A stretch of 60,491 bases of DNA from an uncultured bacterium (GTDB lineage Bacteria > CSSED10-310 > CAZUFC01). Made by a program: the position numbers and the translations under genes. Positions 1,114-53,018 of the stretch are shown one piece after another. Positions within the stretch are counted from its first letter, which is position 1, and each line of letters starts with the position of its first letter. The stretch lies in contig CAZUFC010000043.1 in the NCBI GenBank assembly GCA_964619725.1, positions 1 through 60,491 on the forward strand. Reading direction: 5' to 3'. The notes under the pieces were generated by a model. It had not been told where the DNA came from. It searched no databases and worked only from the letters and a program-made list of their open reading frames with translations.

Positions 1114-1134
1114 GGGTATGCTGAGAATCCTTTT

Positions 1135-2740: not shown

Positions 2741-2787
2741 CGGCGCCGGCCAATTCGGCGAGTGATATGACAATCAACCGGACTTCG

Positions 2788-6093: not shown

Positions 6094-6108
6094 TCAAGAT
6101 CACCTCGA

Positions 6109-25011: not shown

Positions 25012-25124
25012 ATTCGCAATAAATGTGCAGGGGACTGAAATTCCGCTGCCCCATGCTGAACGTAGAAGTGTACTGAATCAGAGGCGATCAGGATGTGGTT
25101 GAATTCTGGTCGGGCGTTAATGAT

Positions 25125-25182
25125 AAGGGACCAAGGGACCTAAGGGACCTAAGGGACTTAAGGGACTTAAGGGACCTAAGGG
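25125..25182 (+). repeat. 9-bp tandem repeat (AAGGGACYT), about 6.5 units
   Basis: Five full 9-mers with partial units at both ends. Confidence 0.95.
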
Positions 25183-29607: not shown

Positions 29608-29608
29608 G

Positions 29609-31537
29609 ATGAAAAGGGAATATTTAGAAGACGACGAGCAGGTGATCAGGCATTTGACGGAAGAGGTTCCTTTGCCGACTGCGGTGAATCTGGAATTGAC
29701 GACGCGCTGCAATTTAAGATGCGTCATGTGCCCGAAGACTGCCGGAAGACCACGGACTCCGCCGGACAGAATGATGGACCCTGATATTTTTCAGAAGGTT
29801 TTGGAAGAAATAGCGCCGAATGTTTATCGGGTTGATCTGGTGGGAGACGGCGAGGTTCTTCTGGCCGGCAGGATGCTGGAGGAGTTGCTGGAAAGGACGA
29901 AAAAGCTCGGCGTAATGGTTAATCTGTGTACAAATGGCGTTTTGCTTGATGGAGCAATGTCGGAGCTGCTTATTAAAGGGGGGCTGCACGATATGAACGT
30001 ATCCCTGGATGCTGTTGATCCGGAGACATACCGTGCAATAAGAGGAGCGAATTTGAATAAGGTTTTGAATAATATCAGAGGGTTGAACAGACTGAAAAAA
30101 GAATTCGGAACAGATATCCCTCATCTTCATTTTTCCATGGTCGGGATGAAGCGAAATATCGGTCAATTGCCCGAACTGGTAAATTTAGCCTCGGAATTAG
30201 GCGCCGAGACTGTTACTTTGCAGGCTTTGGGCGAAGTCGAAGCGGTCAGGGAAGAATCGGTTTGGCTGCATGATGCCGGAGCCGCTAAACGGATTTACGA
30301 CCAGGCGCGTAAACAGGGAGAAAAAGTAAACGTTAAAACGTTTCTATGGCCGGAGGATCAACTTGACGACCGTGACGGGTCGAATTCTGACGGGAAAAAT
30401 GGGAAAAATATTGCAGAAGGCGTGAAGGCCGGTGAATACAGAAAAGATTGCGAATTCCCCTGGGACGTTCCTTATGTCTGCACGGACGGCAATATTTTAC
30501 CCTGCTGCGCCATGCCCAGTATGGGAAGCCTGAAAGAAAAATCTTTTCGAGAAATATGGCACAGCGCAGCGTATAAGGACCTTCGGAGACGAATATGGAG
30601 CACATCGCCGCCTGATATTTGCCTGCATGGTTGCCCCGGTCGGGGTTTCAGAAAACCTGCGCCGCCGTCGGCAGGGATCGAACCCGCCATGGATACCAAA
30701 ATCATAGGATTGGGATGGTTTGAAGCGGAAGCGGGAGGAGACGGGGCCGTCTACCGGTGGACCAGGAAAAAATCGGTTTTCTTCCTTTTGAATAATCCCG
30801 GGGCCGTTGTTTCCATGAAGTTGAGAAAGGAACAGGCTTCAGGAGCCTCAAACAGCGGAAGAATTTATATTAACGGCAAAATGGCGGGAAATTTTTTTTT
30901 GGATTCGCCGCATTGGCAGGATGTTCTGGTTCCGGCGCCTGTATTGAAAGATAAATTGCTGAAAGTTGAAATTGAGGTTGACCGGACCTGGCGCCCCAGA
31001 GAGGTCATAGAAGGATCGGAGGACCCCAGGGAGCTCGGCGTGCAATTCGGAGGAGGAAAACTGGAGGGGGAGCGTTCGCGATTCGTTTTCGATGAATCTC
31101 TGGAAATTCTGGGCTACAAAATATTACCTGAAAAAATAAAATCGGGTAATAAAATCAATATAACTTATTACTGGCGCTGCTTAGCCTCCGTGATCGAGGA
31201 TTATGCTGTTTTCGTCCATTTCGTTCACGAAAAGCACACTTCTCGCCTTTCCAGAAAAAAGGAAGCGCTCAAGAGACGATTCGGATTGGGTTCCAATGTA
31301 ATATTCCAGCAGGATCACCGCCCTTGTGAAGGTCGTTATCCTTTCAACGAATGGACAAAGGAGGAGGTTGTTGCGGAAACGTATGAGCTTCAGGTACCGG
31401 GTCATATCAGAAAGGGTCGCTATCTTATATTATTGGGTATCTGGAATCCCGAAACCGGGAAAAGACTGCCCATAAGTTGTTGTAAGGAATCCGTATCAAA
31501 AGATGTCGCTGCCCTGGGTTCCCTGCTGATTCAATGA
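29609..31537 (+). CDS. Radical SAM / SPASM-twitch protein with C-terminal beta-sandwich extensions (paralogue 2)
   Basis: CNLRCVMC; GDGE; CEFPW..YV..DG...PCC; GWF..E....YRWT, DPRELGV, VFVH...FQQDH; colinear with the upstream gene. Confidence 0.88.
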   Translation: MKREYLEDDEQVIRHLTEEVPLPTAVNLELTTRCNLRCVMCPKTAGRPRTPPDRMMDPDIFQKVLEEIAPNVYRVDLVGDGEVLLAGRMLEELLERTKKLGVMVNLCTNGVLLDGAMSELLIKGGLHDMNVSLDAVDPETYRAIRGANLNKVLNNIRGLNRLKKEFGTDIPHLHFSMVGMKRNIGQLPELVNLASELGAETVTLQALGEVEAVREESVWLHDAGAAKRIYDQARKQGEKVNVKTFLWPEDQLDDRDGSNSDGKNGKNIAEGVKAGEYRKDCEFPWDVPYVCTDGNILPCCAMPSMGSLKEKSFREIWHSAAYKDLRRRIWSTSPPDICLHGCPGRGFRKPAPPSAGIEPAMDTKIIGLGWFEAEAGGDGAVYRWTRKKSVFFLLNNPGAVVSMKLRKEQASGASNSGRIYINGKMAGNFFLDSPHWQDVLVPAPVLKDKLLKVEIEVDRTWRPREVIEGSEDPRELGVQFGGGKLEGERSRFVFDESLEILGYKILPEKIKSGNKINITYYWRCLASVIEDYAVFVHFVHEKHTSRLSRKKEALKRRFGLGSNVIFQQDHRPCEGRYPFNEWTKEEVVAETYELQVPGHIRKGRYLILLGIWNPETGKRLPISCCKESVSKDVAALGSLLIQ

Positions 31538-32742
31538 GCGCTGAATTTAAGACGAAGAAACCTCTGGCTTTCGTAATTCAAAGGTTCGGAGCGGATATCG
31601 ACGGGGGAGCTGAAAATCATTGCCTCCAGTTGACGGTCCGTCTTAAACGCATTATGCCTCTGGAAATAATCACAACCTGCGCTCAAGACTATATCACCTG
31701 GAAAAATGTATACAAGCCGGGAACTGATATGGTTGAAGGGGTGACTGTACATCGCTTTCCTAATTCAGAAACCAGGGATATGCGAGTTTTTAATGAATTT
31801 TCCAAAAAAATATTCGGCGCTTTATCCTCAAAAGAGGAGCAGTTGGAGTGGATTCGCAGGCAGGGTCCCTATTGTCCGGACCTGATAGAATTTATACGGC
31901 AAAATCGCCGCCGTTACAGCGGATTCATTTTTTACGTTTATCTCTACTACCCGACATATTACGGAGTCCAGATCGAACCGGAAAAGAGCATCCTTGTTCC
32001 GACTGCTCACGACGAACCTGCTATAAGACTCCCTGTATTTAAGGAGATGTTTAAAGCGCCGGCCGGATTTCTGTTTCTTACGGAAAAAGAAAAAGAGTTT
32101 GTTGAATCGATCTTTTCCATGGGAGACCGGCCGTATGACGTAATCGGCGCCGGGATTTCCAAACCACTCCGTACGGACCCGGCACGATTCAGAAAAAAAT
32201 ACGGTATTCAGAGTCCTTATTTGCTGGTTATGGGCAGGATAGAAGCCGGAAAGGGATGTTCCGAACTGGTCCGATATTTTCTGGAAATGAAAAGCCGTCG
32301 TCCTTCAAATTTGCAGCTCCTCTTCATCGGAAAACTTCACATGGAGCTTCCTGATCATCCGGATATTTCCTATATAGGTTTTTTGCCGGATGATGATAAA
32401 TTTGATGCCGTTTCCGGAGCAGAAGCCGTCGCCATACCCTCTCCATTTGAAAGTCTGTCGATAGCCGCCCTGGAAGCTATGTCCTGCGGCGTTCCCATCA
32501 TCGTCAACGAAAATTGCAGCGTGCTTGCCGATCATTGCATAAAAAGCAACGGAGGACTCTATTATAAAAATTCGGAAGAATTTATGGAGATAGTCGCTCT
32601 TCTTGGACAGAACTCCGAAATGCGGTCCAAAATGGGAAAAAACGGGCAAAAATACGTTCAGTCATTCTATTCATGGAACAGAGTCGTCCGTAAATTCTGT
32701 AAAAACGTCAGGGAGATGTTCGGTGATGACGCGGATTGTTGA
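31534..32742 (+). CDS. Glycosyltransferase family 4 (GT-B)
   Basis: GGAE, GRIE..KG, PS.FESLSIAALEAM..GVP; ATGA overlap with the upstream gene. Confidence 0.92.
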   Translation: MSAEFKTKKPLAFVIQRFGADIDGGAENHCLQLTVRLKRIMPLEIITTCAQDYITWKNVYKPGTDMVEGVTVHRFPNSETRDMRVFNEFSKKIFGALSSKEEQLEWIRRQGPYCPDLIEFIRQNRRRYSGFIFYVYLYYPTYYGVQIEPEKSILVPTAHDEPAIRLPVFKEMFKAPAGFLFLTEKEKEFVESIFSMGDRPYDVIGAGISKPLRTDPARFRKKYGIQSPYLLVMGRIEAGKGCSELVRYFLEMKSRRPSNLQLLFIGKLHMELPDHPDISYIGFLPDDDKFDAVSGAEAVAIPSPFESLSIAALEAMSCGVPIIVNENCSVLADHCIKSNGGLYYKNSEEFMEIVALLGQNSEMRSKMGKNGQKYVQSFYSWNRVVRKFCKNVREMFGDDADC

Positions 32743-32991: not shown

Positions 32992-35862
32992 TCATCCCGA
33001 AACCAGGCTCATTCGTAATGCCCTGACCATGAGTTTCAATTGTTCGATATGGGTTTTTTCAACGATGGCGTCGGACAGGAGGGTTCCTGCCTCCCAGAGC
33101 TGGTGGTCTATATCCTGAGAAACGAAGCGTGACATTGAGAGCATTTCGCGGCTTTTTTCCGGCTGTTCGAGGAGGACATAGAGCAGTCTGAGGATCATGC
33201 AGGCGAAATAGTTATCAACGGTGACCGAGTTCCAGTATTTCATGCCTTTTTCAAACGCTGCGGCGGCAGCCTGGTCGTTGTCGCTTTTCAGGAATATCAA
33301 AATTCCGTATTCATTCCATATGACGCCTCGTTCGGGATGCGCCTGGAGCAATTCGGCAAGCATTTTTTCGAGAAAATCGAACTCTGATTGTCTCCTTAAA
33401 TAATCTATCTGTTGGATCAGAAAGGTGAGAAAGTGCTTGGAATGGATTTCGAAATCCGACGTATCCAACTGCGACAACCGATTGTAGTATTTTTTAAAGA
33501 AGCTTTGAGAAATCGCCGGTTCGTCCAGCATTCGTGCGCATTTGATCAATTGTTGATAATTCAGTATGCCTGTTTCCGGTTCGTCCAGAAGTTTTATATA
33601 AAATTCGCGTTCGATAATGATGAGAAATTCAGCGGGTTCAGGCGTTTGCCGATTCGTTTCGAGCATTTCGATGATTCTGTTGAACAGTTCCGGCGCGTAA
33701 ATTATGCATTGTTTAAAGTGATAGAGGGCTTCTTCAGGCTTTTCTGCTGCCAGGTCGAGCAAACCAAGTTCCAGGTATGGATTCGCCGCAAGGTGACTAT
33801 GATCTACAAAAAATGGGTTGAGTTCTGCTGCGGCAACCAGATGTTGTCTGGCCATATCGTAATCCTTGACTGATTTGTAGAATTTAGCGATCCTTATATG
33901 ATACAAAGGATTGTTGGGGTTGTAATGGAGCGCTTTTTTCAAAAAATATTCTTCCAGTTCAATCCTGTTCAGGTCATCACTGTAGTATTTGTACCATGCG
34001 CTCATCAGAAAATAGAGATGAGGATCGAAGCGATTGAAAGATAAGGCTTTGCTCAAGAGGTGTTTGGTTTCGGGCACTTTGTCCGGATGAACGGATTCGA
34101 CGGCCTGTTTTTTCAGCAGATCAGAAGCCTGGAGACTGAATTGCGAAAGCAGAACGGCAACGGCCACAGGAATGATAAGAAAAGTCTCGAATCTTTTCGC
34201 CCTGGAAAAGAGAGACTCTTTTCTTTTTTCTATTTTGGAATGTCTGGATGACCAGAGCGCCGCTGCGAAGGGCAACCACACAAGGAATCCGCCGTCCCGC
34301 TCGAAGAACCGGGAATCGTCCAAACCCTGGATAAGGAAACCGACTAACGCGGTGAAAGAAGCAATATGAAGGAAGGGGATTGGATAGCGTTTTTTTGCTT
34401 TCCAGAATTCATAGAGCGTTTTGGCGATCAGCACAAAAAAAGTTACGATTCCTAAAAGTCCTGAATAGACCAGTATATCCACATACATGTTTCCGGAGTT
34501 GTAGAGCGTGGCCGCTGCCGCACCGGAACTCAGCGTGTATTTTATTGATTTATAGGGGAATGCGAATTTCAATGTTGAAGGTCCTATTCCGATAAAAGGG
34601 GACGATTTTAAATTTGAAAGAGCGCCGGCCCAGAATGATGTCTTTTCTGCCGCTTCCTGTCTGAAAAATTGAAGAAAAGTTGTTAATTTATGAGCGGAGC
34701 TGATCTCCATTTCCGAAAAAAAGAGATTTATTCCCGGGAATTTGATGAAAAAGAATGAGATAAACAAGATAATAAAAGGCAGGGGATAGAGCAGGGGAAT
34801 TTTCCGCGATACGCGATTACTTCGGTTCAGTTTGCTTCTGATGAGGAGATAAAACAGCAGAAATTCCGACATGAGAGCCAGCCATGCGCCGACGGAAAAA
34901 GAAAAAAACACTGCAGCTCCCATTATCAGGACAGACAGATGAATTACGATGCGGATTTTTTTGTCGGTGTATTTAAATAAGGCGGCGCAGAGGAAGGGAA
35001 TGACCATAAGAATATGAAAACCGATGGAGTTGGGCGGAGTTTCGGACACCCACATTCGATGAAAAAGACCTTCTCTGATGCCCATCGCTTCAACTCTCAG
35101 AAATATTTTCCAGAACATGCTGACCGCCATCATAAGGCCATGAAATAAAGGGACGGCGAAGATACGAATCGCCTCGGCCGAGGAATGAATATAATTTCCG
35201 ACAATGATCATGAGCACAGCCATTTCACACAAGTAAAGAAATGTTGGAATGCTTTTAGCCGTAACTTTCGAAGTCGCTGTCGACAGCCCGATACTCAACA
35301 GGAAAATTAACACGGGCCAAAGATAATCGGTCAGAATGAACGCCTTTTCATTTCTTCTGGCGCTTTCAACCAGGTGATGAATGACCACTATTATAAAAAA
35401 TAGATGAATAGGGAGCAGGGGCGCTATTTTTTCAGTTTGATACGGCCCGGCTTGAAAAACGATCAGCAACCCCAGTCCGGCCTCGAACATGCGGCGTTTC
35501 GGAAAATAATACAATGATACAAGCAGAATTGAGGTAATGGATGTCATCCAGAAGAAGAGAACATCGTCGGAGTATTGGTTTAAAACATCCAGGGTGATGC
35601 GGATGACGAAGGAGATGTAGAGGATTCCCGATGCGAGATTAGTCGTTGTGCGGCTGTCGAATTGTGAAAGGAGAGAAGGTCGCACGAATTTTTTATAAAA
35701 TATTAACAGGGCGACGCAAAGGATCATTTGAAAATAAAAAACGGAGAGAATTTGGAAATTTGCGGCATCGACCTTGATATCCATGAATAAGAGAAAAGAA
35801 AGCCATAAACAGAAGGCTGAGAAGAGCAATGAAATTCCCGCTTGTTTCCAGTTTTTTTCCAT
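32992..35862 (-). CDS. O-antigen ligase (Wzy_C / O-OTase-like) polytopic membrane protein with C-terminal TPRs
   Basis: Many TM helices; PN..G, SFSVGAWLAL, W......PFIGIGP, N.Y.....SGLLG motifs; TPR region; GGAGG RBS. Confidence 0.75.
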   Translation of the reverse strand: MEKNWKQAGISLLFSAFCLWLSFLLFMDIKVDAANFQILSVFYFQMILCVALLIFYKKFVRPSLLSQFDSRTTTNLASGILYISFVIRITLDVLNQYSDDVLFFWMTSITSILLVSLYYFPKRRMFEAGLGLLIVFQAGPYQTEKIAPLLPIHLFFIIVVIHHLVESARRNEKAFILTDYLWPVLIFLLSIGLSTATSKVTAKSIPTFLYLCEMAVLMIIVGNYIHSSAEAIRIFAVPLFHGLMMAVSMFWKIFLRVEAMGIREGLFHRMWVSETPPNSIGFHILMVIPFLCAALFKYTDKKIRIVIHLSVLIMGAAVFFSFSVGAWLALMSEFLLFYLLIRSKLNRSNRVSRKIPLLYPLPFIILFISFFFIKFPGINLFFSEMEISSAHKLTTFLQFFRQEAAEKTSFWAGALSNLKSSPFIGIGPSTLKFAFPYKSIKYTLSSGAAAATLYNSGNMYVDILVYSGLLGIVTFFVLIAKTLYEFWKAKKRYPIPFLHIASFTALVGFLIQGLDDSRFFERDGGFLVWLPFAAALWSSRHSKIEKRKESLFSRAKRFETFLIIPVAVAVLLSQFSLQASDLLKKQAVESVHPDKVPETKHLLSKALSFNRFDPHLYFLMSAWYKYYSDDLNRIELEEYFLKKALHYNPNNPLYHIRIAKFYKSVKDYDMARQHLVAAAELNPFFVDHSHLAANPYLELGLLDLAAEKPEEALYHFKQCIIYAPELFNRIIEMLETNRQTPEPAEFLIIIEREFYIKLLDEPETGILNYQQLIKCARMLDEPAISQSFFKKYYNRLSQLDTSDFEIHSKHFLTFLIQQIDYLRRQSEFDFLEKMLAELLQAHPERGVIWNEYGILIFLKSDNDQAAAAAFEKGMKYWNSVTVDNYFACMILRLLYVLLEQPEKSREMLSMSRFVSQDIDHQLWEAGTLLSDAIVEKTHIEQLKLMVRALRMSLVSG

Positions 35863-35989
35863 GGTTCCTCCGAGACGGATTACATTTTATCAATTAAAAA
35901 TGAAATGCGCTAATGAAAAAACGATTTTGCCATCGTCGAAAGGAGGAAGTATAATCAAGAAGGAAACATTCGCAGGATGGGAGAAAAAA

Positions 35990-38900
35990 ATGTTTGGACA
36001 TCTAATAAAGAAAATGAAGATAAGAACGATTTTTTTCCTTTTTATGATTTTTGTGGTTTTTTCGGCAGGGGCGGCCGAACCGGAAGAATTGCAGCATGAT
36101 GAGCATACGTTATTTCTGAGTCATTTCAACGGAAGTTTAGAGAGTTCCGACGGCGCAGAGCCGTTGATATCGGAAGGACTGGAATTTGAGGGTGGTATAA
36201 TCGGCGAAGGAGTTGAGATTGATCGAGTGGACAAGCTTCAGTATGATGCGGGTGAATCCGGGGAGCGGATAAATACGGAACAGGGGACGATTGAATTTTG
36301 GTATAAGCCATACTGGAACGGTTTCGATCATTGGAAGATAAGCACTTCAAGGATATTTACGTACGGGAATCACCAAAATCGTATGTGGATACAGGTAGCT
36401 GGGACGAGCGTGCAATTGGGATTTTATAAATATGCGGATGATGTGGTTCAGAGTACTGCGGCGACGGCAGGTATAAGTTCCTGGGTAAAGGAGAACTGGT
36501 ATTTTGTAGCGGTTACCTGGGATATCGACAAAGAGCTGAAGATATACATAGACGGAGAATTGTCGTCCGTGCGTGATTTGCCCCGAGTTCATTTGGACCC
36601 TTATGATACTTTTGAAATAGGTTATTGGGATTTAGGTTGGTCGGAGCGAGCTTTAGGCGTGATAGACGAATTTCGGATCAGCGATATAGTGCGAGAGGAT
36701 GATGAAATTGCGCAGGACTATGTGAGTTCTGCCGGATTCGATCTGATAGGATTATCGCTTTCACCTGGATTTGCTGCAGTAGAAATCGATCATGAAGTTC
36801 CAATGACCGTTCACGGCATTTTTGACGAAGCGGAGAGGGGGCGAAGCGTAAGTTTGCCTTTCACGGGATATGTAGAATGGATTATTGATATGGACCCGCC
36901 CGGCTGCGGAGAATTCGATACAGAAAATTCATCCGTTACGGCGCTGGAACTGGGCGTCATAAACGTTACGGCGGAGAAGGACGGATTATTATCATATGAG
37001 AATGTGATAGAAGTTCAGGAGCCTGATCCTCAATTTGTACCTGAAAATTTAACGGCTGAAAGTTACAAAATTGCGGTCGATTTATCGTGGGATGCCGTAG
37101 GATATTCACAGTCAGCCTACAGGGATTCCGGCAGTGCGGGATATGTGCTTTACAGAAGAAATGCGAGCCAGGGCGATCCTTTTCCTGATGATCCGACGGA
37201 AATAATAGAAGATTATAATACGGATCAATTTCGAGACATACCCCCGGAAGGCGGCCAAACTTATGAATATAAGCTCGGCACATGCGATGAGTATGGGAAC
37301 ATTCGATCTTTATTTTCCGATCCGGTTTCGATTTACGTGGAATGTTTTACTGATCTGGATGTGACTTATATTGAGAGGAATCCCAAGTATCCGCGCAATT
37401 TGGGCGGGGATCGCAAAACCTGGCCGGATGTGGGAGAAACGGTTACATTTACGGCGCATGTCATTAACAAGGGAAATTGTTTATCTGATCCGGCTCCTTA
37501 CAGTTGGCGCATCGATGATGTGGCGATGGGGTCTGGAACGGTTCCGGCGTTATCGGCGGATGAGGAGTTTACGACGGAGTTGACGTGGGACTGGGTGGAC
37601 GAGAGCCTTCCCGTTCGTTTTTCCGTTGATGCGGGCGGAATGAACGAGGTTACGGGAGGCAATGATTCTCTGTTGAACAGGACGAAGGATAATCAGGCTG
37701 CTTTATGGGTTGAGGAGAGCGTATTTGAGTTTTTTGAGGAACGCGAGGGAGCGGTGGGGAGTTTTTCCTGGGAGGACTGGATCAATTACGAATACATTGC
37801 ATTCATTCACCAGACATTTGAAGAGGCGGTTTATCCATTGACGCCCGACGGCATACGTGAACGGGTGAGGATTGATACGCATGAAGTTATTCAGGACGGC
37901 ATCATCTATAACGCGGCTTATCCTCCTTTCAAACAATCTGAAAACATACTTTTCGATAATTTATGGGGATGGCCGATAGCCGTACTTGACGGGAATCCCC
38001 TGGACCATGGATTCATAGGATGGGCGACTCATGAATGGGGGCATCAATGGGGGCTGGTAGACCTTTACGCTTTAAACGTTGTCGGCGATGATATTTTCGT
38101 GGAGGATTTTACGGGCGAACTGGTCGCCGGCACGGAAGACCTTCCTTTGCTGTCCTTCGGAGTCGCTTATCTGACAGACCGGCTGCCCTATATGATGGGC
38201 GGCGATTATACGCGATGGAGCGATTTTTCTTCCTACCTGCTGGACTCTAAAACGCAGTTGCGCAGACCGGACCTGGTGGGCGAGCATCTGGATGATTTCT
38301 CACTGGAAAATAAAATTCGCATACTCAGCGCGGAAGGAGAGGCGCTTGAAGAGGCGCTGGTTTGGATTTACCACACGGAACAGGTATTCTGGGACTGGTA
38401 TAGAAAAGTAATCGATAACGTTCCTGATGTCGTCGACTGGACGGATCAATCAGGGCTTATTTCATTGGGCGATGAACCGTTCGGCGATTATGCCGATTTG
38501 CAGTTTGCCGAGGGAATAATACTTATCCGAACCCGTTACAATCAACAGGTGGATTATCAGTTCAAGGATCAGATTGATTTTAATATGAGTTACTGGGCGG
38601 GGAATCTCGAAGAAACTGTGATAGATATTCAGACGGACATTCTAAGTTCCGCTGTGCCCTCGGAAGAAAATTACGCTCTTTTCAAGGATGCGTCGGCGTC
38701 GAGCTTTATGCCGCGGTGCGGTCCTCAACTGGCGGTTAACGGCGACAAGACCGTTTATTCTTATCATTGGTCTCCTGTGACTACGGAAGCGGGCGAATGG
38801 TGGCAGGTCGATCTGGGAGAGCAGTACGACGTCTGTTCCGTTATCGTTTATCCTCAAGCGGAAAATAGAAAATACTGGTGGAATGTCTATCGAATCGACA

Positions 38901-41113
38901 TATCGCCTACGGGAGATTTCACGGGTGAAGAGACGACTGCCGCGGTAGAAGAAGACTGGCCTGATTTAGGTTCTGAAAAATACAATTTCGCTCCTGTCAC
39001 GGGGCGTTATGTGAGAATTACCGCGGAGGAGGATCAAATTCCGGGTTATCAGGTGGGATTGCAGGAAGTTGAAGTGTTCGTCGCTGTGGAATATACCGGC
39101 GATTCTGACGGCGACGGCCTTCCTGATGCCTGGGAAATGCAATATTTCGTCGACCTTTCCCTGGGATGCGAGGATGACCCGGATAATGACGGATTGGTCA
39201 ACTGCGATGAATTGAGTCTAGGCAGCGACCCTGTTCTGTTCGATTCGGATTTCGATGGCTGGTCAGATTCCTGGGAAGCCGGCATGGGGTTCGATCCCAC
39301 TCAAAACGATAAATACGCGGACAGCGATCTCGACGGTTTCGTCAATTACGAAGAATATCTTGCGGATACGGATGCCTTCGATCCAGAATCTTACCCCATA
39401 CTTTTTCATAATTTCCGTTTTTCAGGAGAAACGATAGGAGACGGCGCCGGAATGTCGAGTATTATAATTCCGGATGTGAATAATGACTCATTTCCTGATG
39501 TATTAATAGCCGCACCATTGAATTCAAGCGCTGTTACGGAATCTGGAAAAGTTTATATTATATACGGAAGGGATTTGTCTGAGTTCAGCAATATGACGCT
39601 GGGATTTGCTGATGCCGCCTTTTTCGGTCTAACCGCATATTCTCATTTGGGCGCTTCCATGGCCGGATTGGGAGACGTTAATCATGACGGTTCATCTGAT
39701 TTTATTCTGGGAGAACCTGATACGCCTGAAGCGGAAGGAGGGAAAGCCTACCTGTTTTTCGGAAATTCCGAAGGTTGGTGGGGCGACTTAAGCGCAGCGG
39801 CATCGGCTGACGTTGCCTTTTCCGGAGAATATGCCGGGGCAAGGATCGGCTCAGCTTTATCCTATGCCGGGGATTTAAACGGAGACGGGTGCAACGATCT
39901 TGTCATAAGCGCGCCTGAAGCGGATAACGTCGGGAAGGTTTATATTACATTCGGGAGCGCGGAATCCTGGCCGACGGAAATAAATATGAGCGATGCGGAT
40001 GTGATCATATCGGGAACAAGCCCCGGAGCGCTTTTCGGCTTTTCCCTGGCAGGGGTCAACGATTTTAACGGAGACGGGTATGATGATTTGCTGGTAGGGA
40101 TACCGGCCATGGACCAGTCGCCGCCTGCAGCGGGCAGCGCCTGCCTGTTTTACGGAAAAGCTGTTTGGGCTCAAACGATGTCTTCGGGGGATGCTGATAC
40201 GTTGTTGATCGGTGAAATGGAGGACGATGCAGCAGGATATTCCGTCGCCGGCATTGGTGACTGTGATGCTGACGGTTTTGCCGACCTGGCTGTCGCTGCG
40301 CCCGATTACGGCGCCGGCAAAGCATACATATTTTACGGACGGACTGAAATGCTGCCTGCGCTCGTATCGCTTGCCGACGCTGATATTATTATTGCCGGTG
40401 AAAATCCCGGCGATAAAGCCGGAGCTTCCCTGTGCTCAGCGGGAGATACCGACGGAGACGGCCTGGACGACCTGCTGATAGGCGCTCCGGGATATACCGA
40501 AAACCAGAATACCGGAGCGGTCTATCTTCTTCAGGATGGACCGCAAAATTGGCCCGCATCCCTTTCGGATGCAGAACTGGTCTGGACCGGTGAAAACTAT
40601 TTCAATTATGCCGGCTCGTCCTGCTCAGGAGGCTACGACATTGACGGCGACGGTTATCATGAATTCATCTCAGGCTCGCCGTCAAACCGTATCGGAGGGT
40701 CCGAAAGAGGAAAAAGTTATCTGAGGTTCCCTGATTGCATGCCGTGGCCTGATTCCGTCAATCAGATAGAACTATTCGAAGATTCTGCTTATTCTGTTCC
40801 GCTGACCGGTGCGGTTCAGCCGGGTAATGCCGTCTATGTTCAGGTCAACGGCGATGATCCCTACATGAGACCTAATATCGTTCTCGTCCAGGTGACCAGC
40901 GACACCGATCCGGACGGCATTATCGTGAGTTTGACGGAAACGGGAGATAATTCCAACGTTTTTCGGGGGCATGTCAAAATCGATTACGCCGCCTCTGATG
41001 CCCTTAATCATAGAATATCTGTTTCACCGGGCGATTATGCGACCTTTTGCTGTATACTTGATGATGATGTATTCACTCAAATCTCGATTTCTTCAAAGCT
41101 GATACTAAAATGA
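35990..41113 (+). CDS. Large secreted multidomain protein: LamG, FN3/Ig, CARDB, zinc metallopeptidase (HEWGH), F5/8 discoidin, TSP3-like and FG-GAP repeats
   Basis: Start ATG 35990 or 36014 before a signal peptide; GTIEFWYKP..DEFRISD; HEWGHQWGLVDLY; WWQVDLG..GRYVRI; DSDGDGLPDAWE; GD.NGDG..DL..GAP repeats. Confidence 0.85.
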   Translation: MFGHLIKKMKIRTIFFLFMIFVVFSAGAAEPEELQHDEHTLFLSHFNGSLESSDGAEPLISEGLEFEGGIIGEGVEIDRVDKLQYDAGESGERINTEQGTIEFWYKPYWNGFDHWKISTSRIFTYGNHQNRMWIQVAGTSVQLGFYKYADDVVQSTAATAGISSWVKENWYFVAVTWDIDKELKIYIDGELSSVRDLPRVHLDPYDTFEIGYWDLGWSERALGVIDEFRISDIVREDDEIAQDYVSSAGFDLIGLSLSPGFAAVEIDHEVPMTVHGIFDEAERGRSVSLPFTGYVEWIIDMDPPGCGEFDTENSSVTALELGVINVTAEKDGLLSYENVIEVQEPDPQFVPENLTAESYKIAVDLSWDAVGYSQSAYRDSGSAGYVLYRRNASQGDPFPDDPTEIIEDYNTDQFRDIPPEGGQTYEYKLGTCDEYGNIRSLFSDPVSIYVECFTDLDVTYIERNPKYPRNLGGDRKTWPDVGETVTFTAHVINKGNCLSDPAPYSWRIDDVAMGSGTVPALSADEEFTTELTWDWVDESLPVRFSVDAGGMNEVTGGNDSLLNRTKDNQAALWVEESVFEFFEEREGAVGSFSWEDWINYEYIAFIHQTFEEAVYPLTPDGIRERVRIDTHEVIQDGIIYNAAYPPFKQSENILFDNLWGWPIAVLDGNPLDHGFIGWATHEWGHQWGLVDLYALNVVGDDIFVEDFTGELVAGTEDLPLLSFGVAYLTDRLPYMMGGDYTRWSDFSSYLLDSKTQLRRPDLVGEHLDDFSLENKIRILSAEGEALEEALVWIYHTEQVFWDWYRKVIDNVPDVVDWTDQSGLISLGDEPFGDYADLQFAEGIILIRTRYNQQVDYQFKDQIDFNMSYWAGNLEETVIDIQTDILSSAVPSEENYALFKDASASSFMPRCGPQLAVNGDKTVYSYHWSPVTTEAGEWWQVDLGEQYDVCSVIVYPQAENRKYWWNVYRIDISPTGDFTGEETTAAVEEDWPDLGSEKYNFAPVTGRYVRITAEEDQIPGYQVGLQEVEVFVAVEYTGDSDGDGLPDAWEMQYFVDLSLGCEDDPDNDGLVNCDELSLGSDPVLFDSDFDGWSDSWEAGMGFDPTQNDKYADSDLDGFVNYEEYLADTDAFDPESYPILFHNFRFSGETIGDGAGMSSIIIPDVNNDSFPDVLIAAPLNSSAVTESGKVYIIYGRDLSEFSNMTLGFADAAFFGLTAYSHLGASMAGLGDVNHDGSSDFILGEPDTPEAEGGKAYLFFGNSEGWWGDLSAAASADVAFSGEYAGARIGSALSYAGDLNGDGCNDLVISAPEADNVGKVYITFGSAESWPTEINMSDADVIISGTSPGALFGFSLAGVNDFNGDGYDDLLVGIPAMDQSPPAAGSACLFYGKAVWAQTMSSGDADTLLIGEMEDDAAGYSVAGIGDCDADGFADLAVAAPDYGAGKAYIFYGRTEMLPALVSLADADIIIAGENPGDKAGASLCSAGDTDGDGLDDLLIGAPGYTENQNTGAVYLLQDGPQNWPASLSDAELVWTGENYFNYAGSSCSGGYDIDGDGYHEFISGSPSNRIGGSERGKSYLRFPDCMPWPDSVNQIELFEDSAYSVPLTGAVQPGNAVYVQVNGDDPYMRPNIVLVQVTSDTDPDGIIVSLTETGDNSNVFRGHVKIDYAASDALNHRISVSPGDYATFCCILDDDVFTQISISSKLILK

Positions 41114-44124: not shown

Positions 44125-44428
44125 TAGTTTTCCTTACATTTTTCCAACTTTTCCGGCTGTTTTGTCCTTGACCCTGGCCTGAAGCCTGATAGGTTCTGAT
44201 CGCTCCATCGCCCGGCGGATATTTTATGCTCACACAGAAAAACGGATTCGTCAACAATCCCCAGATATTTGTCCCCATTTTCCTGGTTTTATGCAACACA
44301 GAATTCAATGTAATTGATCTCATAAAAAAAATATGCTATGGTGGTAAGGTCGTTTTCAATGTAAAACGATAAAAAACCCAGTCGGGTTTCATCCTTGAAA
44401 ATCATAAAAAGCAAATGATAGGCATGGA

Positions 44429-44965
44429 ATGGGTATGAGGGCGACTCAAAAAATAAAAACTTATTCGTCACATGTCAGGTATTTCATGATTCATAGGAAA
44501 CGTTTGCAAAGACACGCCATTCGTTTGGCGGATGGAGACGTACATTTTGCCGAAGATTTACTTCACCAGGCTTATATGATTTTCACGAGAAATACTCCGA
44601 ACAATTCTAAAACAGTGGATGAAAGACATGCCTTTCATCGGCTTTGCCTTATTCTTCTGGGACTTAAAAGAGACCATACCAACAAGAAAAAGGAATTTCC
44701 GCTTTACGACGGAAGTTACGATGCGTATGCCTGTTCATCGTTTCTTTCTCCATTGGATAAAGTGACTATGGATGAAGACATTTCGATGATCAGTAGAAAT
44801 TTTGAGCGTTTGGAGTCGAGTGAAAAAGAGTTGTTCCTTTACCGTTGGTATGACGAAAAAAAATGGGAAGAACTTTCAAGGTTATATGGAATCCCGATAA
44901 CGACTGTACGGTCCAGGTACGTCAAGATAATTGAAAAATTGGGTCAGGGTTTGCAAACAATTTAA
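44429..44965 (+). CDS. ECF-type RNA polymerase sigma-70 factor
   Basis: Region 2-like L.R.A.RL......AEDLLH; region 4 L...EKELF..R.......EELS...GIPITTVRSR; start uncertain. Confidence 0.8.
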   Translation: MGMRATQKIKTYSSHVRYFMIHRKRLQRHAIRLADGDVHFAEDLLHQAYMIFTRNTPNNSKTVDERHAFHRLCLILLGLKRDHTNKKKEFPLYDGSYDAYACSSFLSPLDKVTMDEDISMISRNFERLESSEKELFLYRWYDEKKWEELSRLYGIPITTVRSRYVKIIEKLGQGLQTI

Positions 44966-44984
44966 GATAAGAAAGAAAAAAATC

Positions 44985-45692
44985 ATGGCATGTTGCGGAG
45001 ATCAGTTTCGAAAAATAGAAAAATATCATCAGCTAAGCGACGATGATCAGCTTGAACTTCTTCAGCATATGGAGTCTTGCGAGCGATGCCGATCTATGTT
45101 TGCTCTGATGGACGTAATGTTCAGTTCGGAGCGCGTATTCGCCAGAAAACGAAGATGGTTGCGGATCAAAAGGAAATTTGAACAAATTTCAGAGTCAGCC
45201 ATACCTCCTTGTCTGCAGGTCATGAATGTACCTGTAAGGAATGCTTTGGAAGCCGGTTTCAGACCCGTGATATTCGAGATAAATCTAACTTCCTGTATGC
45301 AATTGTCCGATAAAGGTTTAAAAGGATTAGACCTGGACTCCGATCCTGATTCCGGCAAAACTATTTGGCGTCTGCACGGTTATCGTTCCGGGATGGAAAA
45401 TTTCCAGGCTTTCATGTTGACGACACCCTCAAAAATAATACGGGAAATAGCCGATACAAAGGGCGCTCTGACAACGCGCCTGGGAATAGAAATTGAGCAG
45501 CGATTACAGAGACTCCTTGAAAAGGCGGATATTTCCGATCCGATGATCAAGAAATTGTCTGATCATTCAGTATGTCTGCCTGGAGTATTTGAAAAGAAAA
45601 ATGGAGCAGTATCGCTTGTTTTTTCGATTCCATCCGAAATTATGTCCATCATCGTTCAGAGGTCAAACTGGCTGACTATTGCAGCAGGCTGA
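44985..45692 (+). CDS. Putative cytoplasmic zinc-binding anti-sigma factor (zf-HC2/ZAS)
   Basis: Start moved to ATG 44985; N-terminal C..HMESCERC (HxxxCxxC); directly downstream of the ECF sigma; no TM segment. Confidence 0.7.
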   Translation: MACCGDQFRKIEKYHQLSDDDQLELLQHMESCERCRSMFALMDVMFSSERVFARKRRWLRIKRKFEQISESAIPPCLQVMNVPVRNALEAGFRPVIFEINLTSCMQLSDKGLKGLDLDSDPDSGKTIWRLHGYRSGMENFQAFMLTTPSKIIREIADTKGALTTRLGIEIEQRLQRLLEKADISDPMIKKLSDHSVCLPGVFEKKNGAVSLVFSIPSEIMSIIVQRSNWLTIAAG

Positions 45693-45696
45693 TTTT

Positions 45697-48600
45697 ATGA
45701 AAAACGAGCTGCGGAATATCAGGTCAGTCGCAGAAATGAGGGAATTGATCGAGCGGCGATCCGGGATTCTTGAATTATTGGAACAGGAGTTGACCGATGC
45801 TTTGATGGATAACGAGGATGAGGAGACATCCGGTCAATTCAATCGAAATGAATCACAGGAATATGCCGGGTCAGGTTTTCAATACGATGACTTACATCGA
45901 TCCGAACTCTCATTTTTGAAAAGATGGGAAATTTTCCTGCAGAACGGGCCGATCTGTGAGGGTTACGGATGGAATGCCGCAGCTCTGGGAAGAATGTTGC
46001 CGGAGATGTATAATGCCGGGAAATTAAGAAGGATGATATTCGAGAGGGCAGACGAAGCGCTTCCCCCCGAAGGAAATGAATTACTTAAAGCCTTCATTCT
46101 CGCAGAAAAGGGATTGTCATACGCTTCTCTTTATGCGGAAAATGACCTGGCATACCTGAAAAGAGCGGCGGAATGCCTGGAAAAAGCCCTGAAAGTAATG
46201 AAAACGAAGAGTTATGATCTTGATTGGGCGGAGTACCGGATGAAGCTGGGCAAAATATATTACGAGTTCAATACGGATATACCGGAAAACAAAGAGAGAA
46301 GCATTCAATGTTTTTTGGATGCTGAAAAAATTTTTACTCGGGAAGCGCAGCCCGCGAACTGGGCCAAAAATCAATTGGAGCTGGGGAAATGTTACATAAA
46401 TCGTATCTATGGCGAAAGGTCCGAGAATCTGGAAAAAGCGATTCATAGTCTGAAAAACGCTGAGAAAATATTAAATCGTAAGGATTTTCCGCATGAATGG
46501 GCCAATATTCAGAATTTCCTGGGGAATGCTTATAAATATAGAATCGCCGGCGCTCGCGGCGATAATGTAGAAAAAGCCATAGGATATTTTCAGCGGGCTA
46601 TGAGTCTTAAATCACGACAGGCGGCTCCGAAAGGTTGGGCAACCATTAACATAAACCTGGCGGTAGCTTATCTGGAGAGAATCAAAGGCAGGTATCCTGA
46701 AAATCTCGAAAAGTCGATTGAGTGCTCCTTGAATGCAGCAGTAATTTATGATCGCAAAACACATCCATTGAGATGGGCTGCAATACAGAATAATCTGGGA
46801 ACGGCATACGGACGAAGGATTAAGGGGGATTGCAGCGAGAACAGAGAAAAAGCTGTCCGTTACCTGGAGAACGCTTTGAGCGTATATGGGCCCGACAGGC
46901 ACCCGTTGAATTGGGCCAGGCTGAGACAGAACCTGGCGTTGGCTTATCAGCAGCGTCTTATCGGCGACCCCCGCGAAAACACTCTCAAGGCCGTCAAACT
47001 CCTTGAAGATATCCTGGAGGTTATAGCCAGGGAATCTTATCCTGCACTGTGGGCGCATATTATGAATAACCTGGGTTGCTTCTATTCCGACGATATACTG
47101 GCTGATGACAGCGAATGCATTGAAAAAGCCATCGATTATTTTCAAAAAGCGCTGAAAATCAAATCCCTGCAAGCGGCGCCGATGGAATGGGCGCAAACGA
47201 TGAAAAATTTGGCCGAAGCCTATGTTAAACGACTGGAAGGCGATCCGGGCAAAAATATCGACAAGGCGATCGAAGCATACAGGGCCGCTGTGAAAATATG
47301 GAATCGTAAAGAATTTCCTCTCAGGTGGTCCATGATACAGCATGAAATGGGCGTGGCCTATTACAAACGGGTCACTGGAAAAAAATCGGATAATCTCGGA
47401 AAAGCTGCACTATGTATGAAAAGAGCGCTTACTGTTCGAACGCCCGAAGTTTTGCCCGAAGACTGCCGCCTGACCTCCGCATTCCTGGCCAAAACATACA
47501 TCCTTCTCGGCTCTTTTTCCAAAGCCCTGGAATATTTTAAACTCGCCGCAAATGCTGACGCCGCAGCCTACCGGCAGCATATGCTCCCGGAATCCAGGAT
47601 GCATGAAATCGAAGAAGGTTCGGCGCTTTATTTCAACGCAGCCTGGTGCCTGACCAATTTGGGGAGACTGGAAGAAGCTCTGGAATGGCTGGAACGTGGA
47701 AAAACTCGCATACTCTCTGAAACAATGACGCTTGATAAAGCACGATTAACGGAAATTCCTGAAGAAGATAAAAACCTCTACAGTCAATTGACGGACCAGT
47801 TGTTTATACTAAATCAGGAACATCAACTTGAAAGGCGCGAATTTTTCGATGTAGCCCGGGACATTAGAAAAACCTGGACCAAATTGAACAACCTCATTCA
47901 TAAAATTCAGTCTTATCAGCCTCATTTCGTTCGCCAGGGACTCAAATTCCAAAAATTAACTGAAACGTTGCCGGAGTGCGACACCGTTATACTTGAATTC
48001 AACATTACCGAATACGGCGCTTCAATTTTTCTTATTCGCAATCGACAAGGACAAACCGAAATCAAAGTCATAAATGAAGAAAACTTTAAACTGTCCGATT
48101 TATTTCGCTTTGCTGCAGATTGGAGTGAGCGCTGCCGTCAATTGAACAGGAAAATAAACGATCGGCAAGGAAAGATACGTTTGGGAGAAAAAGTTGCCGA
48201 AACGATTAATGACATTTCCAGAGATTTGTTCCAAAAAGCGGGAGCGGCCCTTGAATTATGGAGGCCCAAAGGTCTTATAATAATTCCGCACATGTCGCTT
48301 CATCTTTTTCCGCTACAATTGTTGAATTTCTCCAGAAACGGAGCTCGCGTAAGATTGTTCGACATCTGTGAAGAAATTTCGTTTGCTCCCTCCCTGACGG
48401 TTTTATATCAAAGCGCATTAAACAGGCGACCTTGCCCTCAAAAATTCGCGGGAATAGCCAACCCTACTCTTGATCTGGTCTGGGCTGAAGAAGAGCTCAG
48501 ACGAATCAAAAAACAATTCAGGAATAACGCTAGAATAATCTCCGGACCAGAAGCGCAAATAGATAACGTTCTGGAGGCAGTCAGGGAATCGGGATACGTT

Positions 48601-49098
48601 CATTTCGCCTGCCATGCTGAATTCAATCCGGATGAACCTTACAAATCCTATATCGCGCTCACCTACGACTCAATGCAGAAAGCTGCTGATACGCCGACTG
48701 AAAAGGTCGCCGGCGCCGTCAGATTCTATATGCCCCAAAAAAAATCTGTCCATCGCCTTTACCTTTCAGATATCTTCAGCAAAGTCAAATTTGACGCCAA
48801 CCGCCTGGTTACACTTTCCGCATGCGAATCAGGTATGGCGGCATCAGGTAACTTTGCCGACGAGTTTATCGGATTTCCCGCAGCCTTTCTTTACGCAGGC
48901 GCAGGCGCCGTCGCTTCAAGCCTCTGGGCTGTGGATGATGAAGCGGCATGCCTGCTCATGGAAAAATTCTACGAAAATATCATCGAAAAAAATATGTCCA
49001 TTCCCGCCGCTCTTCATCACGCACAAAATGATATTAGGAAAATGGAAGAATTCCAAAATCCCTTTTTCTGGGCTTCTTTCCAAATTACCGGTCGCTAG
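45697..49098 (+). CDS. TPR-CHAT (caspase-like cysteine protease) protein
   Basis: About nine ~46-aa TPR-like repeats (EN.EKAI....AL.......P..WA....NLG.AY..RI.G); CHAT motifs IIPH..LHLFP, catalytic HFACH and TLSACESG, SLWAVDD, PFFWASF. Confidence 0.92.
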   Translation: MKNELRNIRSVAEMRELIERRSGILELLEQELTDALMDNEDEETSGQFNRNESQEYAGSGFQYDDLHRSELSFLKRWEIFLQNGPICEGYGWNAAALGRMLPEMYNAGKLRRMIFERADEALPPEGNELLKAFILAEKGLSYASLYAENDLAYLKRAAECLEKALKVMKTKSYDLDWAEYRMKLGKIYYEFNTDIPENKERSIQCFLDAEKIFTREAQPANWAKNQLELGKCYINRIYGERSENLEKAIHSLKNAEKILNRKDFPHEWANIQNFLGNAYKYRIAGARGDNVEKAIGYFQRAMSLKSRQAAPKGWATININLAVAYLERIKGRYPENLEKSIECSLNAAVIYDRKTHPLRWAAIQNNLGTAYGRRIKGDCSENREKAVRYLENALSVYGPDRHPLNWARLRQNLALAYQQRLIGDPRENTLKAVKLLEDILEVIARESYPALWAHIMNNLGCFYSDDILADDSECIEKAIDYFQKALKIKSLQAAPMEWAQTMKNLAEAYVKRLEGDPGKNIDKAIEAYRAAVKIWNRKEFPLRWSMIQHEMGVAYYKRVTGKKSDNLGKAALCMKRALTVRTPEVLPEDCRLTSAFLAKTYILLGSFSKALEYFKLAANADAAAYRQHMLPESRMHEIEEGSALYFNAAWCLTNLGRLEEALEWLERGKTRILSETMTLDKARLTEIPEEDKNLYSQLTDQLFILNQEHQLERREFFDVARDIRKTWTKLNNLIHKIQSYQPHFVRQGLKFQKLTETLPECDTVILEFNITEYGASIFLIRNRQGQTEIKVINEENFKLSDLFRFAADWSERCRQLNRKINDRQGKIRLGEKVAETINDISRDLFQKAGAALELWRPKGLIIIPHMSLHLFPLQLLNFSRNGARVRLFDICEEISFAPSLTVLYQSALNRRPCPQKFAGIANPTLDLVWAEEELRRIKKQFRNNARIISGPEAQIDNVLEAVRESGYVHFACHAEFNPDEPYKSYIALTYDSMQKAADTPTEKVAGAVRFYMPQKKSVHRLYLSDIFSKVKFDANRLVTLSACESGMAASGNFADEFIGFPAAFLYAGAGAVASSLWAVDDEAACLLMEKFYENIIEKNMSIPAALHHAQNDIRKMEEFQNPFFWASFQITGR

Positions 49099-49441
49099 AA
49101 GAATACTCCTTTTATGGAATATTGATTTGTAAAGGGATTTTACTTGCGTTTAAAATATTTTTAATTTCTTTTCGTAATTCTCCGTTTTAAATCCATATTT
49201 CATTGTGAGGCGTTAATAGCGATCTTCACGTTATTAGCGATAAACTATAATAATGTTGTTTGGATTCGAATTGTGAATAGAACAGGAACGCAGGGTTTAA
49301 AAGGGGTTTTAAAGCGCCGGTTTCCGGTTCAATCAGTTCCAAACCCACAGACCTTGTATTATCGAAGGTCGTTTTTTCCCCAGTGACGTTATTCGGACCG
49401 CGTTGTCAGACGGAATTTTGACTGAAGGATCCAGGGGTTCT

Positions 49442-49663
49442 ATGAAAGCTTGGCTACACAACACAATGGAGAGAGTCAAATCGGGATATTCGTTGAAAAC
49501 GGAAAACTCCGGCAGCGATTTAACTGGTTTTCTTTCTCTTTTAAGGGATGACAGGCATGATCCGAAGGTGTTTCTCGTCGATAATGGTCAGAATACAAAG
49601 GTTCTACTGATATCGGAACCGGCGCCGGCGCGTATTTGTCCATTTCAGATTCAAAAATTTTGA
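49442..49663 (+). CDS. Small hypothetical protein, uncertain
   Basis: Open frame in an otherwise non-coding gap with a weak AGGGG RBS; 3' end overlaps the first enhancer-like dyad. Confidence 0.25.
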   Translation: MKAWLHNTMERVKSGYSLKTENSGSDLTGFLSLLRDDRHDPKVFLVDNGQNTKVLLISEPAPARICPFQIQKF

Positions 49664-49778
49664 ATTTCGCAAGAAAAGCTGGTTCAAAATTTTCGAAAAA
49701 AACAGCTAAATATATTTAAAATTAATAACATAAGCCAGGGTCAAAAAATTTGAATTTTTTTCAAATTTTTTGACCCTG
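49650..49778. promoter_or_regulatory. Putative enhancer/operator cluster: four TTCAAA-N3-TTTGAA-like dyads
   Basis: Dyads at 49650, 49683, 49740 and 49760; the last two form a perfect 19-bp inverted repeat; 37 bp identical to 25622-25658. Confidence 0.7.
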
Positions 49779-52328: not shown

Positions 52329-53018
52329 ATGGAAACGACGACGTACAGCGGTGCGCATTTAATTAAAACGCTTTTTTCAGAGGAGAAGCCGATAGAGGTC
52401 GTTATTGACGAACGTGAGAAGAGATCGGGTATTATAGAGATTTTATCATGTTCGGAAGATGTAGCTGTGGAAGTAAAAAGTCTGAAAACAGGAGATTACC
52501 TGGTCGACGGTCATTTGCTGATTGAAAGAAAAACAGTAAGGGACATGGCTATATCAATAATCGACGGGCGTTTGTTTAGACAGGCCGTACGCCTTTCGTC
52601 ATGTTCGGAATTCAGCGTTATAATAATCGAAGGCGACTGGGAGACTGACAGACCGGGCAATATGACTAGAGAATCTCTTTTGGGAGCCTTCGTGAGCATG
52701 ACGATTATCCTAGGAATTGCCGTCATATGGACCAGGGACGCCGAGGAGACTGCTAAAACGCTCCTATATGCGGCAAAGCAGATGCGGAGTTCGATAAATG
52801 ATGCTCTGCCCAGGCATGGAAGACGGCCGAAGGGCAAGGCGAAATTGCAGAATTTCATTCTCCAGGGGCTCCCCGGCATCGGACCGAAGAAGGCAAAGCA
52901 ATTGATAGAGAAATTTGGGAATGTTCAATCTGTGATAAATGCTGAAAAGGAGGAATTGATGAAAATTCCGGGTATCGGGGAAGAGACGGCGCGAATGATT
53001 CGCTGGGCAGTTCAATAA
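52329..53018 (+). CDS. ERCC4/XPF-family structure-specific nuclease with tandem HhH (short, helicase-less form)
   Basis: IDERE, L.TGDY, IERKT.RD, SIIDGRLFRQ, IIEG; HhH motifs LPGIGPKKA and IPGIGEETA; AAGGAG RBS. Confidence 0.92.
   Translation: METTTYSGAHLIKTLFSEEKPIEVVIDEREKRSGIIEILSCSEDVAVEVKSLKTGDYLVDGHLLIERKTVRDMAISIIDGRLFRQAVRLSSCSEFSVIIIEGDWETDRPGNMTRESLLGAFVSMTIILGIAVIWTRDAEETAKTLLYAAKQMRSSINDALPRHGRRPKGKAKLQNFILQGLPGIGPKKAKQLIEKFGNVQSVINAEKEELMKIPGIGEETARMIRWAVQ

Follow-up and report, generated by a model that had tools for sequence, protein, structure and literature searches.

A stretch of 60,491 nucleotides from an uncultured bacterium of the CSSED10-310 lineage (GenBank assembly GCA_964619725.1, contig CAZUFC010000043.1, positions 1 to 60,491; hereafter the window) carries three co-oriented genes encoding a divergent sigma factor of the extracytoplasmic function (ECF) type, a small soluble protein with a zinc-binding anti-sigma (ZAS) motif, here called ORF2 (open reading frame 2), and a TPR-CHAT cysteine protease. 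The triad is real, and very probably it works as a functional module. By analogy with characterised protease-controlled sigma factors, we favour, at a probability of roughly 45%, the interpretation that it constitutes a CRISPR-independent, cytoplasmic three-gene switch in which the protease would control the sigma factor by cutting ORF2 as its candidate anti-sigma factor. An earlier note on this DNA, made from the letters alone, had proposed such a switch and described three co-oriented genes with gaps of 19 and 4 bp. The coordinates agree with that description, ATG starts for ORF2 and the CHAT gene leaving 19 bp between the sigma gene and ORF2 and 4 bp between ORF2 and the CHAT gene; for ORF2 the ATG at 44985 was favoured over an earlier TTG at 44931 by alignment with homologues. 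The gene order and this tight spacing suggest that the three genes are carried on one transcript.

The protease contains a Pfam CHAT domain (E=4.1e-44) together with TPR_2, TPR_12 and TPR-S matches above cutoff. Its catalytic dyad, His973/Cys1043, is located in the motifs HFACH and SACESG, which are present as the earlier note had read them, as is the HxxxCxxC motif of ORF2, and both dyad residues are nearly invariant across 32 aligned homologues. The AlphaFold2 (AF2) model of the protein (pLDDT 83) displays a TPR superhelix of ~46-residue repeats (residues ~73-740), a small beta module (763-794) and the CHAT domain (856-1133), the latter carrying a disordered insert at 993-1016. When this model was compared with known structures using Foldseek, the best match was Csx29 (8eey_B, 3.9e-15), with human separase (9hn0_B, 1e-14) and DdvA (8rot_A, 8.8e-13) also retrieved. 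Judged by its modelled fold the protein is a TPR-CHAT protease of the separase/Csx29/DdvA class, the earlier note having read it as a TPR-CHAT protein; its sequence found no match in the PDB at E<=0.01. A word-index search produced 352 homologues, with identities of just 31-35% for the best; among the matches listed, those that carry a name are largely cyanobacterial. Neither the protease nor ORF2 contains a 19-residue window reaching a Kyte-Doolittle value of 1.6 (maximum 1.42 and 1.51, respectively), and for this reason a cytoplasmic protease and a soluble ORF2, as first supposed, are consistent with the data. Ahead of the TPR array, residues 1-71 (45697-45909) form a disordered, strongly acidic segment modelled with pLDDT <50, which might serve as an autoinhibitory or docking tail.

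ORF2 features the motif HMESCERC, in which H28, C32 and C35 are the putative zinc ligands. In an alignment of the five ORF2-family members these three residues are invariant (5/5), and every member has a further cysteine upstream, 7-27 residues before the histidine (C3/C4 in ORF2, 24-25 residues before). At the level of its primary structure, ORF2 has the signature of a ZAS domain, H-x3-C-x2-C preceded by a candidate Cys/His ligand. The profile matches are faint: zf-HC2 from Pfam scores E=0.0019 and 18.7 bits, short of its cutoff of 22.2, so that the profile by itself does not make ORF2 a ZAS protein, and the RsrA model gives E=0.6. A profile of the ORF2 family aligns to the ZAS domain of RsiW (PDB entry 5wuq), the top sequence match in the PDB, exactly at HxxxCxxC, weakly, with E=0.12.

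The family is very small. A full HMMER pass through 1.84 billion representative sequences recovered four relatives at E<=1e-3 (E=1e-13 to 4e-5), the word-index search returned ORF2 alone, tblastn against plasmids gave no match, and a search of the protein-language-model atlas found nothing at 0.9, its sole lead being a zf-HC2-containing cluster at 0.84. The stretch conserved within the family spans residues 48-234, and further invariant C-terminal positions in the five-sequence alignment include an IFE(I/V)N block and W229. In the AF2 model (pLDDT 76) a helical N-terminus (1-71) is followed by a disordered linker of low model confidence (71-91) and an alpha/beta domain (~92-235, pLDDT 80-92). 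The earlier description of a C-terminal domain of ~180 residues is thereby refined, the folded domain beginning after the linker. A cleavable tether would be expected to look like this in a model, with a low-confidence linker between two folded parts. The C-domain corresponds to no recognised family or fold: Foldseek searches of PDB and BFVD gave 0 matches at E<=1e-3 with the whole two-domain model as query, a setting in which a domain-only query might find more. The best PDB fold matches, histidine kinases at a TM of ~0.19, were dismissed as meaningless.

The sigma factor is divergent. Its C-terminal half matches Sigma70_r4 over residues 126-171 (E=1.7e-5, 24.7 bits against a cutoff of 24.1), which identifies a sigma-4 region, and Pfam Sigma70_r2 gives no match at E<=1. 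Residues 38-173 align to positions 26-163 of the sigma70-ECF model TIGR02937 (E=1.3e-8) at 34.6 bits, below the model's cutoff of 42.9. SigW is the best sequence match in the PDB (5wuq_A, residues 22-171, E=0.11), the nearest clusters in the protein-language-model atlas score 0.98 and are sigma-70 families, and a word-index search returned only the query itself. We regard the protein, from its sequence, as a divergent member of the sigma-70 family of ECF size. The earlier labels of ECF sigma factor and ZAS protein draw on weak profile scores together with context.

In order to assess how far the triad is conserved, a genome scan was seeded with a four-sequence alignment of the ORF2 family, which returned two loci, L001 and L002. 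On L001, a contig of 5.4 kb from a CSSED10-310 metagenome-assembled genome (GC 0.553), a relative of ORF2, P0126, is accompanied by a sigma gene and a CHAT-domain reading frame. ORF2 and its relative are 24-25% identical, and the two genomes are clearly distant. The L001 CHAT domain is 35% identical to that of the window over residues 877-1132 (E=2e-49), and a BLAST comparison of 113 CHAT domains with the window protein places it third. A maximum-likelihood tree built from 71 CHAT domains puts the window and L001 sequences together with P0004, P0005 and P0034 in a five-member clade with 99/95 support, a grouping to be read with some caution given its long branches; the remaining 66 domains, largely cyanobacterial, fall outside. 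Because the L001 CHAT domain both ranks this high and shares the window's clade, the protease and the ORF2-type protein appear, on these comparisons, to travel together. A sigma gene, an ORF2-family gene and a CHAT gene of one clade are linked in 2/2 readable loci, in rearranged orientation, and in both the sigma gene lies immediately upstream of the ORF2-family gene. This count covers the window and the one relative whose context was read; the further ORF2 relatives P0123, P0124 and P0125 and the CHAT-clade proteins P0004, P0005 and P0034 stand outside it. The earlier note had tied its proposal to the CHAT gene being linked in relatives, and in L001 it is (n=1 beyond the window). The second locus, L002 from Acidimicrobiales, was dropped from the count, as it had matched the 19-residue ZAS motif alone and has no CHAT gene nearby; it encodes a bona fide zf-HC2 anti-sigma factor adjoining an ECF sigma factor, an ordinary ECF/ZAS pair.

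To obtain a base rate for such neighbourhoods, the CHAT protein was compared with plasmids by tblastn, which matched 14 records, and 12 loci were inspected. No sigma-like or DUF1822 neighbour was present at seven of the 12. Two loci, from Picosynechococcus PCC 7003 and from pAQ6 of PCC 7002, present the row sigma-70 family protein, DUF1822, DUF6717 and CHAT, with sigma factors as divergent as that of the window (TIGR02937 E=4.5e-5 and 1.3e-3, neither reaching the cutoff). At the other three, on plasmids of Nostocales (Nostoc UHCC 0926, Aulosira laxa and Nostoc carneum), a 231-residue hypothetical protein precedes DUF1822 and TPR-CHAT; this protein has no Pfam or NCBIfam match at E<=0.01 in the two of three copies that were scanned. 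The idea that ORF2 is itself a DUF1822 protein was rejected, there being no Pfam match and an hhalign probability of 0.12% between the ORF2 family and a Nostoc DUF1822 protein. From the plasmid loci and the lack of relationship between ORF2 and DUF1822 it therefore follows that sigma-coupled TPR-CHAT operons recur with varied middle proteins, and that the window holds a distinct, rare variant of this theme.

Several published systems resemble the triad in part. In the Craspase output of type III-E CRISPR, as reported by Strecker et al. 2022 (PMC10028731), Csx29 cleaves Csx30, whose full-length form inhibits CASP-sigma; a cytoplasmic TPR-CHAT protein beside an ECF-like sigma factor is common to both systems. 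Csx30 is described there as a two-part sigma inhibitor with a flexible cleavage region, a layout to which that of ORF2 can be likened by analogy. In contrast to Craspase, the window has no Cas7-11, no cas gene (no Cas domain in the 34 reading frames scanned against Pfam) and no CRISPR-like array detectable by Tandem Repeats Finder, as the earlier note had maintained, nor was an equivalent of Csx31 recognised. Binding of RNA guided by a CRISPR RNA cannot be the activating signal here, unlike in Craspase. The window protease, with 1133 residues, has a much longer TPR array than Csx29, and ORF2 shows no similarity to Csx30, either as a PDB sequence match at E<=10 or as a Foldseek PDB match at E<=1e-3. 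Of the earlier comparison to a Craspase-like output module, the analogy and the TPR-CHAT fold survive; a likeness of ORF2 to Csx30 does not, and the CHAT gene of L001 is convergent.

A second relative in kind is DdvA of Myxococcus xanthus, in which, according to PMC11506125, a ZAS domain and a periplasmic TPR-CHAT domain form one fusion with a membrane helix between them. That article proposes, without demonstrating it, a signal-induced autoproteolysis of DdvA, reports that DdvS/DdvA controls the expression of effector loci, and lists DdvA-like fusions from several Myxococcota species and one Comamonas species by its authors' search. As presented there, the system combines a CHCC-type zinc anti-sigma domain, joined functionally to a separase/Craspase-type TPR-CHAT protein, with an ECF sigma partner, a combination that the window would share through its candidate anti-sigma factor. 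DdvA is described as a single transmembrane polypeptide, whereas the ZAS and TPR-CHAT parts in the window are two reading frames separated by a stop codon and 4 bp; unlike DdvA as described, ORF2 bears an additional alpha/beta domain, and ORF2 and the window protease are soluble with no hydrophobic segment.

Coupling of ECF sigma factors to caspase-fold or CHAT proteases is, according to two articles, already published, in line with the earlier remark that such neighbourhoods are known bioinformatically. Kaur et al. 2021 (eLife, PMC8195603) report caspase neighbourhoods in which an ECF sigma factor and DUF1822 occur, and suggest that the peptidase triggers a signal to the sigma factor; a review (PMC8999054) reports conservation of genes for CHAT, carboxypeptidase and subtilase proteins next to ECF54 sigma factors, which it describes without an anti-sigma factor and for which it proposes control by protease. 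The window differs from the former in a middle protein that carries a ZAS motif and not DUF1822, and from ECF54, as the review presents it, in having ORF2 as a candidate anti-sigma factor. The same tripartite logic of a protease, a cleavable anti-sigma factor and a sigma factor of ECF-like kind is found in CalpL-CalpT-CalpS, summarised in bioRxiv 10.1101/2023.06.23.546230, where CalpL cleaves CalpT and frees CalpS; CalpL is a SAVED-Lon protease activated by cyclic oligoadenylate via SAVED, and that summary describes no CHAT, TPR or ZAS motif. We found no description in the literature of a separate soluble ZAS protein with a cytoplasmic TPR-CHAT protease, a kind of locus that supplementary tables might list; what the searches did bring up were the CRISPR-linked, DdvA and ECF54 articles. 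A literature search for TPR-S together with conflict systems returned nothing. By the membership features examined, the triad lies outside the Craspase, DdvA and DUF1822 systems.

To rationalise the triad on the molecular level, we infer by analogy with the Csx29-Csx30-CASP-sigma, CalpL-CalpT-CalpS and DdvA-DdvS systems that the CHAT protease cleaves ORF2 and so releases the sigma factor. In the resting state the N-terminal helices of ORF2 would keep the sigma factor inactive. The TPR superhelix would recognise the C-domain of ORF2 and/or a protein cue in the cytoplasm that derives from stress or phage, and this recognition would activate the CHAT site and lead to a cut in ORF2, for which the disordered linker at ~71-91 or its vicinity is the most plausible place. 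Degradation of the ORF2 remnant by housekeeping proteases would then free the sigma factor, which would transcribe a regulon probably including its own operon. A complex prediction for CHAT residues 331-1133 and ORF2 residues 48-235 gave an ipSAE of 0.00 in two runs, which were done without controls and count neither way on binding.

A number of observations weigh against this switch. Conservation rests on a single locus beyond the window, and there the CHAT gene runs on the other strand, which means that operon coupling is not conserved; the N-terminal part of its product is off the contig, leaving any TPR array there out of view. The sigma factors of the window and L001 have no BLASTP similarity (E=1.1), and for that reason the two sigma partners may be non-orthologous. 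For the sigma factor and for zf-HC2, the profiles score under their curated cutoffs or barely reach them. Taking GGAAC-N14-19-CGTC as the generic ECF promoter consensus, we counted 3 matches in the window where 2.56 are expected, and none near the operon. No PADLOC model matches any of the three proteins, none of the genes flanking the triad is recognisable as a defence gene or an obvious partner, and every step of binding and cleavage is inferred.

The main rival places the protease at the other end of the pathway. The sigma factor and ORF2 would together be the sensor, through a thiol/zinc switch like that of RsrA, responding for instance to thiol stress, or through the C-domain, and the TPR-CHAT protein would be an effector driven by the sigma factor, such as a protease for suicide or remodelling. 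Autoregulated targets usually sit where the CHAT gene does, four base pairs downstream in an apparent ECF-like sigma operon, ORF2 possesses a redox-capable Cys/His/Cys/Cys set, and the control of effector loci by DdvS/DdvA reported in PMC11506125 offers a precedent. Against it, the CHAT gene of L001 is convergent and overlaps the end of the P0126 gene, which precludes co-transcription; co-inheritance of so rare a protein with one CHAT clade fits physical partnership better than membership in a regulon; and in the accounts of PMC10028731 and bioRxiv 10.1101/2023.06.23.546230 the characterised sigma-linked CHAT and Lon cases all have the protease upstream of the sigma factor. With convergence and co-inheritance arguing against it, we hold this alternative to be unlikely, if the most serious of those considered.

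Less probable still is that ORF2 regulates the protease and not the sigma factor, as a securin-like inhibitor or pseudo-substrate, or that the protease acts on the sigma factor directly in the manner proposed for ECF54, HxxxCxxC being in either case a structural zinc site. The sub-cutoff zf-HC2 score and the concentration of family conservation in the C-terminal region 48-234 would suit these readings; separase is controlled by its inhibitor securin, as PMC11506125 recounts, and PMC8999054 proposes control of ECF54 by protease without an anti-sigma factor. The invariance of the H/C/C residues in all five members, together with a sigma gene directly upstream in 2/2 loci, is nonetheless the standard ECF/ZAS arrangement, as found in L002. 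Chance adjacency of a numerous, mobile TPR-CHAT gene to an ordinary sigma/anti-sigma pair, with no joint function, would agree with the seven of 12 plasmid loci that have neither neighbour and with the differing orientation of the two ORF2 loci, but we consider it very improbable in view of an ORF2 family of five representatives among 1.84 billion whose gene touches a CHAT gene of the same small clade in both readable loci.

Beyond the triad, the gene upstream of the sigma gene is a divergent one of the radical-SAM type, and further on come genes for a PLD-family protein and a giant FG-GAP protein; downstream of the CHAT gene lie genes for an EF-hand protein, a response regulator, a protein with DUF6498 and an ERCC4 nuclease. 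No sigma-70-type promoter was found on the + strand of the divergent intergenic region ahead of the sigma gene, and the sigma-70 and terminator scans of the window gave matches at the level of shuffled sequence. An 86-codon frame at 49403-49663, ~300 bp past the CHAT gene, has no family match and was excluded from the module. A perfect palindromic hairpin with a 19-bp stem (49736-49778) and T-runs on both strands resembles a bidirectional terminator; it sits ~640 bp past the CHAT stop codon, beyond a non-coding-looking stretch and the doubtful 86-codon frame. The window as a whole has a GC content of 0.465. Among its other genes, the tandem radical-SAM/SPASM genes and the adjoining glycosyltransferase gene may form a peptide- or sugar-modification cluster. 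The architecture of a short ERCC4 domain with tandem helix-hairpin-helix motifs is one that archaeal short nucleases of the XPF/Hef type typically have. Two giant repeat proteins suggest an environmental bacterium with a large genome.

Table. Positions of the triad, of the comparison loci and of other features of the window
Sequence	Feature	Position	Strand or orientation	Description
Window	Sigma gene	44429-44965	+	Divergent ECF-like sigma factor, 178 aa; sigma-2-like N half, sigma-4 C half
Window	ORF2	44985-45692	+	235 aa, soluble ZAS-like anti-sigma candidate; HxxxCxxC, linker, alpha/beta C-domain
Window	CHAT gene	45697-49098	+	Cytoplasmic TPR-CHAT cysteine protease, 1133 aa
Window	Divergent intergenic region	44125-44428	.	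~300 bp, from radical-SAM gene (minus strand) to sigma gene; presumed operon promoter region
L001	Sigma gene	2872-3549		Sigma70_r2 E=5.6e-14
L001	ORF2 relative P0126	3542-4417		Starts within the sigma gene, 8-bp overlap
L001	CHAT-domain reading frame	4370-5419	Opposite to P0126	Overlaps the end of P0126 (convergent); runs to the contig edge
L005 (Picosynechococcus sp. PCC 7003 plasmid)	Operon-like row	517-6611	Co-oriented	Sigma-70 family, DUF1822, DUF6717, CHAT
L013 (Picosynechococcus PCC 7002 pAQ6)	Operon-like row	1213-6886	Co-oriented	Sigma-70 family, DUF1822, DUF6717, CHAT
Window	Large repeat-sensor signalling protein	8829-12443	-	1204 aa; N-terminal Ser/Thr kinase, AAA_16 (STAND-like) ATPase, C-terminal TPR/MalT-like repeats
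Window	Giant Kelch protein	14068-18900	+	1610 aa, Kelch beta-propeller
Window	Tandem repeat	25124-25182		9-bp repeat TAAGGGACC, 6.7 copies, apparently intergenic
Window	Radical-SAM/SPASM genes	27703-31537	+	Two tandem paralogues, 634 and 642 aa
Window	Glycosyltransferase gene	31534-32742		Group 1; follows the radical-SAM/SPASM pair
Window	Giant FG-GAP protein	35774-41113	+	1779 aa; FG-GAP, Laminin_G_3, F5/8 type C, CARDB
Window	Short ERCC4 nuclease	52329-53018	+	229 aa; tandem helix-hairpin-helix tail

The release of sigma factors by proteases has recently come to light as an output of type III CRISPR systems (Csx29/Csx30/CASP-sigma and CalpL/T/S) and of the defence regulator pair DdvA/DdvS. 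Against this background the locus is a minimal, all-cytoplasmic version composed of three proteins, with an intact dyad and a small, tractable candidate substrate, and ORF2 defines a very rare family whose C-domain has no recognisable fold relative. We know of no activator of a TPR-CHAT protease outside CRISPR. More speculatively, and in our estimation improbably in this full form, the ORF2 family could be an undescribed class of soluble anti-sigma factors whose new-fold C-domain serves as a handle or bait for one TPR-CHAT clade, the whole acting with a fast-evolving sigma factor as a nucleic-acid-independent, protein-sensing immune or stress receptor that, on detecting a cytoplasmic protein such as one from a phage, signals directly to transcription through the cutting of an anti-sigma factor. 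If the proposed cleavage mechanism holds, the link between TPR-CHAT proteases and sigma factors would be a modular principle in which the middle proteins, Csx30, DUF1822, the ORF2 family and the DdvA fusion, are interchangeable.

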